DNA of 64,000 bases from Gemmatimonadota bacterium (GCA_013002885.1 JABDLS010000047.1:17351-81350), one strand, 5' to 3'. Shown: positions 56,953 to 62,730, numbered from the stretch's first letter. Notes: a model not told the origin generated them from the sequence alone. Numbers and translations are program-made.

Positions 56953-58776
56953 ATGTCCGAACTCGATCCGAAACTCACCTTCGAGTCTTTCGTCGTCGGC
57001 CCCGCCAACCGCCTGGCGTCGGCCGCGGCTCGGCGTGCCGCCGAGACACCCGGGACGAGCTACAACCCCCTCTTCCTCTACTCCAAGCCGGGCCTGGGCA
57101 AGACGCACATCCTCACCGCCATCGCCCATAGAGCAGAGTCGGACCGTGTCGAGTACATGGCGCTCGAAGAGTACCTCGACCGTCTGGAGGCGGGCTTGCA
57201 CTCCGGAACCGGCGAGAAGGGTGTGTACGGGGATCTGGACATCCTTCTTCTCGACGACGTCCAGTTCTTGACCGGCCAGCCCGAGGCCCAGGAGATGCTA
57301 CTCAAGACGCTGGACCAACTGACGTCGTCCGAAGGGCAGATCGTGTTGGCCAGCGACCGACCGCCGGCGGACATCAACGGACTCGATGCTCGCCTGCTGT
57401 CGCGCTTCTCAGGGGGGCTCATCGTCGATCTGGGCGCCCCGGAGTACGAGACACGCGTCGCCATCATCAACAAGAAGGCCGAAGAGCGGGGCCAGACCCT
57501 GGAGCCAGGGGTCGCGGAGGCCGTTGCGAAGGCGCCCCTCAAGAATGTCCGCGAGCTCGGTGGCGTCCTCAACAAGATATTCGCTACGCAGGACCTGGAA
57601 GACCGGCGCGTCGCCATCGAAGAAGTGGCCGCGCTTCTCGAGAAACAGGACGAGGCGGCTGCCCTCAGTAGCGGCTCCGACGAATTCGGCTCGTTCCTCA
57701 CCGAACTCACGTCGACGGTCGAGACCGTGGTCGAGGAGAAGGAGGAGCTGTGGAGAAAGACGCTTCGAGACGCCATCGAGACGGCGGACCGGCGGGGCTT
57801 TTCGACGCTCCGCCTCGAATCGCTCCTCGACAGTTCCGTTGAACCGGAGGGGTGGGAAGAGGCCATCCGAGGCTTCAAGGCCGACCTCCAGCGCCTCCAC
57901 GAGATCGACAATGAGCTGAACCGTCTCGGCAATCCCTGGCCCGAAGCCGCCCAGGGGGTACTCGAGGACCCCGACCGCCTCGAAGAGGCCGAGGCGCTCC
58001 TCACCTCCGTCCGCGAGCGTCAGCGGCCCTTTCCCCGGATCGCGGACGGCGACCAGTTGCACGATCTCGACGACTTCGAAAACATCGCGCTGAAGGCGGC
58101 TGCCCAGTTGGTCGGTGCGGAGAAGCCCGACTACAACCCCTTGTACGTCTGGTCGTCCGACGAAGCGACGGCCAAGACGCTCCTCGGCGCCGTCGGCCGA
58201 ACGTACCAGGAAGCATACCCCGAGCTAGCCATGGCCGTGGCCTCCGTACCCGAGTTCGCCTCGGACTTCATTCGAGCCCTTGGCGAGGGTGTCGCTGGGG
58301 CGTGGCGGGAGCGGTGGTGGACGGTGGACCTCCTCCTTGTCCATGGTATCCAGGATCTGGTTGAGACCGAGCGGGCGCAGGACGAGTTCTTCCACCTTTT
58401 CGAGGCTCTTCGTCGACGTGGAGCGAGGATGATGTTCGTGGGCGATCGGGCTCCGGCGTCCATATCGGAAATCGACGATCGTATGCGTTCCCGATTCGAG
58501 GGTGGTCTCGTCCTGGAGGCATCGACGGGTACCATCGTGCCTCTTGAGCTCGTCGAGTCGTCCGACGACGAGCATGCCGGCTCCGACGACGCCATCTTCG
58601 TGCCGGATCTCGATGACGGCGCGGACGACGGCGAGGCTGGTGGCACGTCGTCGAGGCCTCAACCAGTGCCCATCGAGGCCGCGACGCAGAGGGGTGGCGC
58701 GTGGTTCCCCGGACCAGAGAACGCGGTGATCCACTGGCCGCGCTTCGAGGAGCTCCTCATCGAGGAGCTAGACTGA
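56953..58776 (+). CDS. tandem DnaA-domain-III (AAA+) protein lacking DnaA domain IV; module 1 intact, module 2 degenerate
   Basis: Module 1: FESFVVGPANRLA..YNPLFLYSKPGLGKTH (Walker A), ILLLDDVQF (Walker B), LASDRPP, RLLSRF (box VII Arg), NVRELGGVLNK (sensor II). Module 2 starts near 58132: YNPLYVWSSDEATAKT, LLLVHGIQ, ERAQDEFFHLFEAL, FVGDRAP, RMRSRFEGGL. No HTH domain IV. ATG 56953 follows a 106-nt gap. Confidence 0.85.
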   Translation: MSELDPKLTFESFVVGPANRLASAAARRAAETPGTSYNPLFLYSKPGLGKTHILTAIAHRAESDRVEYMALEEYLDRLEAGLHSGTGEKGVYGDLDILLLDDVQFLTGQPEAQEMLLKTLDQLTSSEGQIVLASDRPPADINGLDARLLSRFSGGLIVDLGAPEYETRVAIINKKAEERGQTLEPGVAEAVAKAPLKNVRELGGVLNKIFATQDLEDRRVAIEEVAALLEKQDEAAALSSGSDEFGSFLTELTSTVETVVEEKEELWRKTLRDAIETADRRGFSTLRLESLLDSSVEPEGWEEAIRGFKADLQRLHEIDNELNRLGNPWPEAAQGVLEDPDRLEEAEALLTSVRERQRPFPRIADGDQLHDLDDFENIALKAAAQLVGAEKPDYNPLYVWSSDEATAKTLLGAVGRTYQEAYPELAMAVASVPEFASDFIRALGEGVAGAWRERWWTVDLLLVHGIQDLVETERAQDEFFHLFEALRRRGARMMFVGDRAPASISEIDDRMRSRFEGGLVLEASTGTIVPLELVESSDDEHAGSDDAIFVPDLDDGADDGEAGGTSSRPQPVPIEAATQRGGAWFPGPENAVIHWPRFEELLIEELD

Positions 58777-61411: not shown

Positions 61412-62730
61412 GCGAACAGACGAGTCCACGGATCCTTGTCGTCGACGACGACACCGACGGGCTGGAGGTCCTCCAGACCCGTCTCACGCATGCCGGCTAC
61501 GAGGTCGAAACCGCCGAGAGCGCCGAGAAGGCGCTGTCGCGCGTGAAGGCCTTCGACCCCGGCATGATCGTCACTGACGTCCGGATGTCCGGGATGACGG
61601 GTCTTGAACTTCTGGAGAAGATCCGTGGGTCCATGGACGAGGTGGAGGTCGTGGTCATGACCGCCCACGACGACATGGAAACCGCCGTCACCGCCATGAA
61701 GGGAGGAGCCTTCGACTTCCTCGTGAAGCCGGTCGACCCGAAGGCCGTCCAGGCGCTCGCGGACCGCTGCTTCAAAGAACGCGAGCTGGTGGAGACCACC
61801 GAGGTCCCCGACCAGGTGGCAGCTCTCCCTCGGAGCCGCCTGGTGGGCAGCGACCCCAAGATGATCGAGATCTACAAGACCATCGGGGTCCTGGCCCGGA
61901 ACCGGGCGACGGTGCTCGTCCGCGGCGAGACGGGAACCGGAAAGGAAGTCATTGCCCGAGGGATTCACGAGAACTCCGAACACTCCCAGGAGCCCTTCAT
62001 TGCCGTGAACTGCACGGCCCTGACGGACACGTTGTTGGAGAGCGAGCTCTTTGGCCATGTGAAAGGGGCCTTCACGGGCGCCACCGGCGCCCGCAAGGGA
62101 TACTTCGAGCTGGCGGGAAAGGGGACGATCTTCCTCGACGAGATCGGCGACACCAGCCCCGACTTCCAGACCAAGCTCCTGCGTGTGCTTCAGGAGCGCC
62201 GCTTCTATCCCGTGGGGGGGGAGGAGCACAGGACGACGGAGGCTCGCGTCATCGCGGCGACGCACCAGCCCATCCAGGAGCTCATCGAGAAGGAGCGGTT
62301 CCGGGAGGACCTGTACTTTCGCCTCAAGGTCGTGGAGATCCACGTACCCCCGTTACGCGATCGTCGGGGAGACATCGAGGCCATCGCCACGGCCCTCCTC
62401 GGCAGAATCCGTGAGGAGACGGGCAAGGATGTACGACGCATCTCGGACGCAGCCGTCGAGCGCCTCATGGCCTACGATTGGCCGGGCAACGTGCGGGAGC
62501 TGGAGAACGCCCTCCTGCGGGCGGCCATCGTCGCCAGAGGCACGGTCATCGGGGAGGACCATCTCATCCTGGAGGGATCCTCGCAGGCCGGCCCGAAAGA
62601 CCTTACCCTCGAGGCCGCCATCCGAAGACATGTACGCCTCGTTCTCGGCCGGACTGACGGCGACGAGAGTGAGGCGGTGAAACTCTTGGACATCACGCCC
62701 AAGGAGCTGAAAAAGCACCTCTCGGATTGA
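61408..62730 (+). CDS. sigma54-dependent response regulator (NtrC family: REC + AAA+ + Fis-type HTH)
   Basis: REC ILVVDDD...MIVTDVRMSGMTG. Walker A GETGTGKE. GAFTGA motif present. FLDEIGD. C-terminal HTH LLDITPKELKKHL. ATGA overlap with the upstream stop. Confidence 0.93.
   Translation: MSEQTSPRILVVDDDTDGLEVLQTRLTHAGYEVETAESAEKALSRVKAFDPGMIVTDVRMSGMTGLELLEKIRGSMDEVEVVVMTAHDDMETAVTAMKGGAFDFLVKPVDPKAVQALADRCFKERELVETTEVPDQVAALPRSRLVGSDPKMIEIYKTIGVLARNRATVLVRGETGTGKEVIARGIHENSEHSQEPFIAVNCTALTDTLLESELFGHVKGAFTGATGARKGYFELAGKGTIFLDEIGDTSPDFQTKLLRVLQERRFYPVGGEEHRTTEARVIAATHQPIQELIEKERFREDLYFRLKVVEIHVPPLRDRRGDIEAIATALLGRIREETGKDVRRISDAAVERLMAYDWPGNVRELENALLRAAIVARGTVIGEDHLILEGSSQAGPKDLTLEAAIRRHVRLVLGRTDGDESEAVKLLDITPKELKKHLSD

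Follow-up and report, generated by a model that had tools for sequence, protein, structure and literature searches.

To our knowledge, the ATPase fold of DnaA is known almost only from the replication initiator itself and from its regulator Hda. Here we analyze a four-gene locus (g1 to g4, positions 56953-62730) in a 64,000-nucleotide stretch of DNA from a Gemmatimonadota bacterium (GCA_013002885.1, JABDLS010000047.1:17351-81350; this whole stretch is termed the window, and positions are counted from its first letter), in which a duplicated version of that fold is encoded next to a protein that combines a PATAN (DUF4388) domain with tetratricopeptide repeats (TPRs). The nearest described systems to which the parts of this locus can be compared are found in the signaling of cell polarity, type IV pili and cyclic di-GMP (c-di-GMP). 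PATAN is the output module of the cyanobacterial PatA-type regulators and binds PilB1 and PilC in Synechocystis (bioRxiv 10.1101/2021.06.11.447907), and PATAN genes are neighbors of mglA and mglB (PMC4316618). In Bdellovibrio, MglA, a TPR protein and a c-di-GMP receptor are joined at the pilus pole (PMC3983030). The MshEN domain is a high-affinity c-di-GMP receptor (PMC5013675), and it is the sole known c-di-GMP receptor type of Gemmatimonas aurantiaca, which is listed as lacking PilZ (PMC5013675, Supplementary Table 5).

Comparison of gene neighborhoods leads us to read the window's locus as a reduced and rewired form of an uncharacterized module found across Gemmatimonadota. Three changes set the window's clade apart: its locus lacks the Mgl/Che genes, g1 has a decayed second ATP site and g4 lies between g3 and the gene for a small membrane protein. 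We give about even chances to the proposal that the locus is a c-di-GMP-responsive control module of polarity or of an envelope machine, to which a transcriptional arm has been added. The new element would be the DnaA-like component together with its wider fusion relatives, MglA/PATAN/c-di-GMP signaling and NtrC-type regulators being already known kinds. An earlier note, made from the DNA sequence alone, had stated that its author knew of no described pathway that combines these parts. That statement agrees with full-text literature searches, which returned nothing joining DnaA or Gemmatimonas to DUF4388, PATAN, MglA or MshEN in this sense, but it has to be qualified in that the ancestral MglA/MglB/Che/PATAN setting is a described kind of system. 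The genes in question are:

56953-58776, + strand, g1, 607 amino acids (aa), tandem DnaA-type AAA+ protein (NCBI product name: ATP-binding protein)
58776-60395, + strand, g2, 539 aa, PATAN/TPR protein (NCBI product name: tetratricopeptide repeat protein)
60392-61411, + strand, g3, 339 aa, membrane-anchored putative peptidase
61408-62730, + strand, g4, 440 aa, putative NtrC-type regulator (NCBI product name: sigma-54-dependent Fis family regulator)
62762-62953, + strand, gene for a 63-aa membrane protein with two transmembrane helices (...GYWLLAQGSITAAPLLLVLGYVVLLPMAIIK), HKN72_05140 (hypothetical protein in NCBI)

Profile searches with Pfam and NCBIfam upheld the earlier domain calls for all four products, and reading of the open reading frames and junctions likewise bore out the overlaps between them, namely one nucleotide (nt) at g1/g2 (TGATG; GACTGATGGCC) and four at both g2/g3 (GTGA; GAGTGAGG) and g3/g4 (ATGA; CCATGAGC), as well as the gaps of 106 nt from rluD to g1 and 31 nt after g4. 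At least five other same-strand 4-nt overlaps are found in the window (5095/5098, 16132/16135, 24071/24074, 24925/24928 and 50591/50594; the genome has 66% G+C). Since such overlaps are frequent in this genome, those within g1-g4 indicate an operon, yet are unremarkable alone. The spacing at the junctions varies between -4 and +51 nt among the orthologous four-gene loci, so that tight packing is kept among the loci and exact coupling at g1/g2 only. g1-g4 are a real operon, and the single coupled unit considered likely earlier holds to this extent; it does not hold for the exact coupling of the other junctions, nor, probably, for an end at 62730. The transcription unit probably runs past this position, because the 63-aa membrane gene comes next in seven of seven loci and a scan of the block and of what follows it gave no terminator-like site above random expectation. 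Scans for sigma-70 promoters and terminators gave no more than the chance level, and an Rfam scan of 56500-63500 for RNA elements was empty.

The distribution of the genes across genomes separates a widespread core from a local addition. The g1 family is large, with 2,853 representatives at E <= 1e-30, and dozens of its 50%-identity clusters have the layout of a tandem plus a middle domain. Every named member of the family is from Gemmatimonadota. When a profile built from eight sequences was run against one genome per GTDB species, those of the matches listed that include the g1 middle domain all belonged to this phylum (L004-L027, L039), the rest being ordinary DnaA proteins of other phyla. 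g1 and g2 are adjacent in all of the approximately 27 Gemmatimonadota loci examined, with the 1-nt overlap kept across orders (e.g., L017). Seven of these loci share the order ileS-rluD-g1-g2-g3-g4 (the window, L001 and L003-L007; several of the relatives are labelled Longimicrobiales), and g4 is found only in these seven loci of the window's clade. In about 20 others g1 and g2 are adjacent, g3 lies 1-6 kb downstream and g4 is missing; hence, the co-conservation of all four genes envisaged earlier is true of a packed operon in seven loci and fails for g4 elsewhere. The 63-aa gene directly follows g4 in all seven four-gene loci and directly follows g3 in 12 loci of the Mgl/Che type (see below), which places g4 between two ancestral neighbors. 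The conserved core is g1, g2, g3 and the 63-aa membrane gene, linked in every Gemmatimonadota locus examined.

In the Gemmatimonadales-type loci this core lies in one co-directional array, which in L017/L009 runs in the order rluD, CheY, CheA(-CheW), CheC/X, an approximately 900-aa TPR protein, PATAN, TPR-Roadblock, Roadblock-like, MglA, g1, g2, CheR, CheD, CheB, an AAA_22 ATPase, CheW, CheW, a TPR protein, g3, the small membrane protein, a TPR-like protein and rsmH, with which the dcw cluster begins. Within this array, Pfam called the Che, PATAN, TPR and Roadblock genes, the GTPase next to g1 gives a full-length match to M. xanthus MglA (PDB 5YMX, E = 3e-60) and this Mgl/Che-type gene order recurs in at least 10 loci. 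The constituents of the array are those of a control system of the MglA/Frz type for polarity or a motility organelle: as in the M. xanthus MglA/MglB-Frz system, the MglA orthologue is accompanied by Roadblock proteins and CheA/Y/W/R/B/C/D, here together with TPR and PATAN proteins and the core. Unlike this array, no described Mgl/Frz system has a DnaA-type ATPase or a Peptidase_MA_2 protein; furthermore, the window's locus is without MglA, MglB and Che, and RomR, RomX and pilus or gliding machines were not seen. The hub formed in Bdellovibrio by MglA, the TPR protein Bd2492, RomR and CdgA offers a second comparison, with a small-GTPase context, a TPR scaffold, a c-di-GMP receptor and a function at the polar type IV pilus (PMC3983030). 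However, its c-di-GMP receptor is a degenerate GGDEF domain rather than a PATAN/MshEN protein and it has no AAA+ partner, the likeness being one of parts. Two loci from divergent lineages of lower G+C display other arrangements, with a PATAN protein bearing textbook MshEN motifs one gene away from g1 in L084 (PATAN - x - g1) and the order REC-PATAN-REC ... TPR - g1 - PAS ... TPR in L085. Taken with the other loci, these indicate that the stable partners of g1 are PATAN and TPR proteins, g3 and the small gene. Thus, in every Gemmatimonadota locus examined a duplicated DnaA fold without DNA-binding domains has PATAN/TPR proteins as constant partners, and in many of them MglA/Che as well.

The position of the module is fixed. 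In the window it is preceded by yggS-divIVA-pnp-ileS-rluD (49851-56846), and in Gemmatimonadales-type genomes the whole Mgl/Che cluster lies between rluD and rsmH (L017:314-1345 and 18894-19844).

These distributions bear on the view taken in the earlier note that the four genes form one self-contained undescribed regulatory pathway with g4 as its dedicated output. The four genes are indeed contiguous, tightly spaced and syntenic in seven loci, one of them carries a sigma-54 promoter candidate in its coding sequence (see below), and the loci in which the second ATP site of g1 has decayed are exactly those that carry g4, which suggests co-adaptation. Nevertheless, about 20 loci keep g1, g2, g3 and the small gene without g4, and g4 splits g3 from its ancestral neighbor. 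The upstream synteny yggS-divIVA-ileS-rluD is common to the same seven loci, so that their four-gene conservation partly reflects relatedness, and g4 is a generic NtrC-type protein with an ordinary receiver domain, for which a kinase from outside is needed. We hence regard a closed four-gene pathway as unlikely and prefer the module with an added transcriptional arm, the components of which are considered in turn.

In Pfam searches g1 shows two Bac_DnaA stretches, and neither DnaA_N (PF11638) nor Bac_DnaA_C (PF08299) was matched; with DnaA domains I and IV missing, it fits its earlier description as a replication-initiator-type ATPase that has no domain for binding DNA boxes. Its N-terminal half (aa 1-232) is a complete DnaA domain III, featuring Walker A (GLGKTH), the DD of Walker B (LLLDDV), box VII (DARLLSRFSGGL) and sensor II (NVRELGG); the best match among PDB sequences is B. 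subtilis DnaA domain III (E = 8e-45), with a Foldseek TM-score of 0.85. The C-terminal half (aa ~377-522) has lost Walker A and B (SSDEATAKT and LLLVHG) and retained the arginine-finger box (DDRMRSRFEGGLV) as its sole remnant, and is predicted to be a pseudo-ATPase in the window's clade. This second ATP site is degenerate in all seven sigma-54-type loci (those with g4), and both sites are intact in all Mgl/Che-type loci, with an intermediate state in L010 (MglA-g1, labelled Longimicrobiales). Between the two halves lies a family-specific helical domain of about 110 residues (aa ~245-357), which was modelled with high confidence and for which no Pfam family, no PDB sequence match and no fold match was found (best Foldseek E = 2.6). 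The last ~70 residues form an acidic, disordered tail that ends in a conserved peptide, WFPGPENAVIHWPRFEELLIEELD (58696-58773), with the consensus W(F/L)xSxEKVVWxWPxxxxRLIEEL(D/R) through the whole g1 family. The very last residue follows the type of locus, being acidic (D/E) in all sigma-54-type loci (...EELD, ...EDLD; window 58762-58773) and basic (R/K) in all Mgl/Che-type loci (...EELR, ...EELK, ...EEYR). The AlphaFold2 model of g1 has a predicted local distance difference test score (pLDDT) of 79.5, falling below 50 in the tail, and shows good domain folds.

Thus, g1 has in common with DnaA and Hda the fold of AAA+ domain III, and its N-terminal half possesses every catalytic motif. It departs from both in a tandem duplication of domain III, whose copies are separated by a new helical domain, in lacking domains I, II and IV and a clamp-binding motif (direct reading of its N-terminus revealed no QL[SP]LF-type motif), in the seemingly catalytically dead C-terminal half of the window's clade and in having signaling proteins as partners; Hda, in addition, is a single AAA+ domain of ~230 aa, in contrast to the 607-aa tandem of g1. 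These features have to be set against the alternative that g1 controls replication or the cell cycle by acting on true DnaA, in an Hda-like or dominant-negative fashion, via mixed AAA+ oligomers and arginine fingers. Such an activity would tie replication initiation to signals of polarity or c-di-GMP, in a phylum with a budding type species (Gemmatimonas is known to reproduce by budding). It would be in keeping with an N-terminal half that is ~38-47% identical to DnaA domain III and has every ATPase and arginine-finger motif intact, with a score just under the cut-off of the DnaA profile TIGR00362 (330.9 versus 343.9 bits) and with a location beside divIVA in the window and directly upstream of the rsmH/dcw cluster in Gemmatimonadales. 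Conversely, the loss of the clamp-binding motif and of domains I and IV, and a score well short of the cut-off of the Hda profile TIGR03420 (105.6 versus 194.8 bits), are difficult to reconcile with it. Moreover, the constant partners of g1 are PATAN and TPR proteins (with MglA and Che in the Mgl/Che-type loci) and not replication genes, and related DnaA-type ATPases are located in a pilus locus (L086, see below). Taken together, these points make a role in replication control quite unlikely, and we favor an ATPase that serves the signaling module.

The obvious partner of g1 in that module is g2. Its PATAN/DUF4388 domain (PF14332, 131.8 bits versus a gathering score of 25) occupies aa 4-161 with the full profile covered, and Pfam places TPRs at aa ~252-535 and no Response_reg domain. 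A helical insertion of the PATAN domain (aa 54-110; 58935-59105) carries a tandem MshEN-type c-di-GMP-binding motif, which exceeds the cut-off of NF053729, the NCBIfam model of the MshE-related c-di-GMP motif (45.3 versus 38 bits), and resembles, among PDB sequences, PilF, PilB and MshE in their GSPII/MshEN modules. The MshEN consensus consists of two 24-residue RLGxx(L/V/I)(L/V/I)xxG(L/V/I)(L/V/I)xxxxLxxxLxxQ motifs with a short spacer; in g2 the two 24-residue motifs read RLGELLV...L...V..Q and KLGELLV...L...I..Q, both with the Gln and the hydrophobic positions, and most of 24 g2 orthologues conserve the residues R/K-L-G, L, L and Q. On these motifs, g2 is probably a c-di-GMP-sensing scaffold. 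As Gemmatimonas is listed without PilZ receptors (PMC5013675), it is a concrete candidate for a c-di-GMP effector of the phylum. The g2 architecture differs from the known versions of both its elements: the tandem motifs, shared with MshE, PilB and PilF, lie inside a PATAN domain and not at the N-terminus of a secretion ATPase, and the bona fide PATAN/DUF4388 domain, shared with the cyanobacterial PatA-type regulators (PixE, PixG, LsiR), is joined to TPRs and a c-di-GMP-type insert, as opposed to the PATAN-receiver fusion of those proteins.

The third component, g3, belongs to Peptidase_MA_2 (PF13485, 49.3 bits versus a gathering cut-off of 32.4). Its metal site comprises HEWAH at aa 148-152 and Glu170, invariant in 19 orthologues, and a direct count of the spacing gives HEWAH-X17-E instead of the X18 reported earlier. 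On the strength of HExxH with a downstream Glu, we class it with the gluzincin/Peptidase MA proteins as a putative peptidase. The same 19 orthologues conserve HExxH...(F/W)xEGYA, a transmembrane helix and an RRxRxxxxLxxLRA tail, consistent with a protein that begins with a signal or anchor, has its peptidase domain in the periplasm, spans the membrane with a C-terminal helix (aa ~279-301) and ends in a basic tail in the cytoplasm. The 63-aa protein encoded beyond g4 matches no Pfam family; from its constant position its gene is likely the fifth of the unit and an ancestral neighbor of g3. A RidA/YjgF-family gene (window 62954-63346, + strand) starts where the 63-aa gene stops (TAGATG) and, given this abutment, may be co-transcribed with it; the pair recurs in L003 and not in L001.

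A membrane-bound peptidase beside a sigma-54 activator raises the alternative of an envelope stress or regulated proteolysis system, in which g3 would act as a periplasmic sensor protease that relays via its tail and g1/g2 to g4, thereby turning on sigma-54-dependent envelope genes. The strictly conserved HExxH...E, the membrane anchor and the conserved cytoplasmic tail of g3, as well as the ever-adjacent small membrane protein, would suit such a role, and many sigma-54 activators control envelope functions. Yet, the g3-g4 link is confined to one clade, AAA+ proteins of the DnaA clade are not unfoldases and the Mgl/Che/PATAN context would be left unexplained, all of which render this alternative improbable.

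The transcriptional arm of the window's clade is represented by g4 and a promoter candidate in g3. Pfam identifies Response_reg, Sigma54_activat and AAA_lid_14 in g4, with GETGTGKE and GAFTGA present, and the receiver residues Asp13/14, Asp57, Thr85 and Lys106 are apparent on direct reading; from these receiver and AAA+ signatures we assign it to the NtrC-type sigma-54 response regulators. It does not reach the threshold of any named equivalog (NtrC, AtoC, ZraR, PrsR, LuxO, FlgR, etc.), the best being NtrC (416.5 versus 558.6 bits), and aligns end to end with PrsR, the PEP-CTERM regulator (357.8 versus a cut-off of 502.6 bits). Its C-terminal region is short and helix-turn-helix (HTH)-like, and alignments to ZraR, PrsR and RtcR-PspF-type profiles reach the C-terminus. 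In agreement with the earlier reading, no histidine kinase or rpoN gene is among the 34 window open reading frames searched with Pfam, about 20 smaller genes not being covered by that search. A target promoter, which had been thought not to be visible nearby, was in contrast found within g3:

61269-61284, + strand, candidate sigma-54 (-24/-12) promoter TGGCACTCGTCTTGCT, within g3 codons L293-L298, 139 nt upstream of g4

This site fits TGGCAC-N5-TTGCT at every specified position (consensus TGGCAC-N5-TTGCW; GG at -24, GC at -12) and is the only perfect sigma-54 site of the window, in which the count of other sites with up to two mismatches equals the chance expectation. The transcript is predicted to start near 61295, ~113 nt before the g4 ATG. 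Strict TGGCAC-N5-TTGC has six matches in the 2.86 Mb of DNA searched, all of them at the orthologous codons of the g3 transmembrane helix, in five loci (the window, L001 with its duplicate L002, L003, L006 and L007), and the motif is missing wherever g4 is missing. Two rare codons build the -24 and -12 elements, GCA (7.6% of Ala codons) and TTG (7.0% of Leu codons), and neither varies among the five loci. In g3, 102 columns have an amino acid that is the same throughout and at least fourfold degenerate; a single codon is kept across the five loci in only five of these columns, and two of the five are this GCA and this TTG; no other all-GCA or all-TTG column occurs in g2-g4 (77 Ala and 111 Leu columns). 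The retention of these codons points to selection on the DNA sequence and thereby argues for a working sigma-54 promoter, which would drive g4 and the 63-aa gene from inside the operon. Compared with NtrC, ZraR, PrsR and PilR-type proteins, g4 thus has the familiar phosphorylatable receiver, GAFTGA AAA+ domain, lid and a perfect -24/-12 promoter close upstream, and differs in reaching no equivalog cut-off, in an undetected HTH_8 (see below), in the lack of an adjacent kinase and in the location of the promoter inside the preceding gene.

A second conserved element lies ahead of the operon:

56862-56897, + strand, promoter- or operator-like element upstream of g1, CCCTTTTTT-N~17-CCGATACTTAGC (also written CCTTTT-N-CCGATACTTAGC)

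It occurs once in the window and aligns in the window, L001, L003, L006 and L007, the remaining intergenic sequence having diverged, and is not present in L004 and L005. Judged by this conservation, it is probably the main promoter of the operon or an operator. A sigma-54 promoter upstream of g1 was considered and rejected, the conserved element there being of another type.

Two likenesses below cut-off may be a possible hint of an exopolysaccharide link, namely that of g4 to PrsR and that of the AAA_22 ATPase of the Mgl/Che-type array (L009:15201-15998) to the PEP-CTERM-associated ATPase TIGR03015 (196.8 versus a cut-off of 324.5 bits).

Joining these components, we posit that g1 would be an ATP-dependent self-assembling switch or scaffold, using DnaA-like head-to-tail contacts in which the C-terminal half supplies the arginine finger, and that the peptide of its disordered tail would dock on a partner, most obviously the TPR domain of g2. 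g2 would sense c-di-GMP via the MshEN insert and use its PATAN domain to act on a machine of the pole or the envelope, for which the type IV pilus motor is the best precedent, and g3 and the 63-aa protein would tie the complex to the envelope by anchoring or sensing. g4, once phosphorylated by a kinase from elsewhere, would activate the internal sigma-54 promoter, raising the levels of g4 itself and of the small-gene product, and would probably control further, distant targets. The two kinds of loci constitute a natural experiment, in which a form of g1 with two ATP sites accompanies Mgl/Che and a form with one dead site accompanies a sigma-54 regulator and an intragenic promoter. The module further offers a way to probe PATAN function outside cyanobacteria, and polarity in the poorly studied budding Gemmatimonadota.

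Several observations weigh against this proposal. Regarding g1, the predicted template modelling score (pTM) of the model is 0.47, which makes the inter-domain arrangement unreliable, so that the relative position of the two AAA+ halves cannot be read from it. The C-terminal half retains a residue that we take to be equivalent to the single-stranded DNA-contacting Arg245 of E. coli DnaA, and nucleic-acid binding by g1 is hence possible. An apparent fusion of a g1-type protein with PATAN-TPR, seen in a 1,026-aa metagenome protein (P0156), would support the module if genuine, but could be a frameshift artefact, given the one-base overlap of g1 and g2. Regarding g2, both turn glycines (Gly10) of the MshEN-type motifs are substituted, by His in one and Asp in the other, the spacer between the motifs has 6 residues as against 5 and the motif is degenerate in the Gemmatimonas clade; the departures fit the relaxed MshEN motif of PMC5013675 only in part. 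As for the transcriptional arm, HTH_8 was not detected in g4 by Pfam even at E = 10, no enhancer-like inverted repeats were found upstream of the internal promoter and the sigma-54 motif is missing in two of the seven four-gene loci (L004 and L005), where a search with a relaxed motif gave a single 8/10 match, in L004. Finally, Pfam searches of 34 window open reading frames revealed no MglA, Roadblock, Che, type IV pilus or flagellar genes (about 20 smaller genes were outside this search), and tblastn of the window with the L017 cluster proteins found no Mgl/Che genes; the polarity link of this organism therefore comes from its relatives only. In these relatives, the Che set of Gemmatimonadales could simply be a flagellar chemotaxis operon.

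Fusions in other bacteria place g1 in a broader context. In phyla other than Gemmatimonadota, DnaA-type AAA+ modules are preceded by a full MshEN domain in proteins of ~1,900 aa, and many proteins of 1,360-2,150 aa combine long TPR arrays with a DnaA-type AAA+ module (P0416, P0455, P0459, P0477, etc.), with names pointing to Candidatus Sumerlaeota, Sumerlaeaceae and Hydrogenedentota. At one locus (L086:1660-21985; GCA_900174595.1, FWPV01000121), four MshEN-domain genes lie between pilD and TonB_C-pilB-pilT-pilC-pilS, three of which are fused to DnaA-type AAA+ modules (978, 425 and 1,994 aa). These proteins are without the middle domain and tail of g1 and are thus a different family on the same theme. 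The module and the c-di-GMP and TPR fusions of other phyla point to a second, signaling career for the DnaA fold. We tentatively suggest, as a possibility that we would not yet favor over its negation, that DnaA-type AAA+ modules without DNA-binding domains make up an unrecognized class of switches whose assembly is driven by nucleotides and which serve polarity, type IV pilus and c-di-GMP signaling. Behind this suggestion stand three forms, i.e., the tandem ATPase with MglA and PATAN-TPR in Gemmatimonadota, MshEN-DnaA proteins at a pilus locus and, in Sumerlaeota and Hydrogenedentota, TPR-DnaA proteins. That these proteins would still co-assemble with true DnaA, as a further extension, strikes us as very doubtful; if true, it would couple replication initiation to cell polarity in the budding Gemmatimonadota. 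Other relatives of the TPR-DnaA fusions carry zinc ribbons or HEAT repeats, and the neighborhood of one such fusion (L087) held nothing informative.

The genomic setting also speaks to a last alternative, an anti-phage defense island or mobile accessory cassette, which the combination of an AAA+ ATPase, TPRs, a protease and a regulator superficially recalls from some defense systems. The locus lies amid housekeeping genes, however, its G+C resembles that of its neighbors, as does its third-position G+C (0.76-0.85, like that of the adjoining ileS), and it has been passed on vertically throughout the phylum without a change of position, which leaves an extremely small likelihood for this alternative. 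A known defense system was sought with PADLOC, which gave only generic likeness to AAA, TPR and RtcR-like AAA models, so that this candidate is effectively refuted.

Elsewhere in the window, a GAF-SpoIIE (PP2C-type) phosphatase gene (20867-22450, + strand) encodes a possible partner-switching regulator. Two long open reading frames without a Pfam match, of 921 aa (40108-42873, - strand) and 427 aa (1746-3029, - strand), may be either spurious antisense frames of a G+C-rich genome or real genes. Between ftsH and exbB-exbD-exbD-tonB, the gene at 46360-47187 (+ strand) is identified by synteny with L001-L003 as that of the c-di-AMP synthase CdaA.

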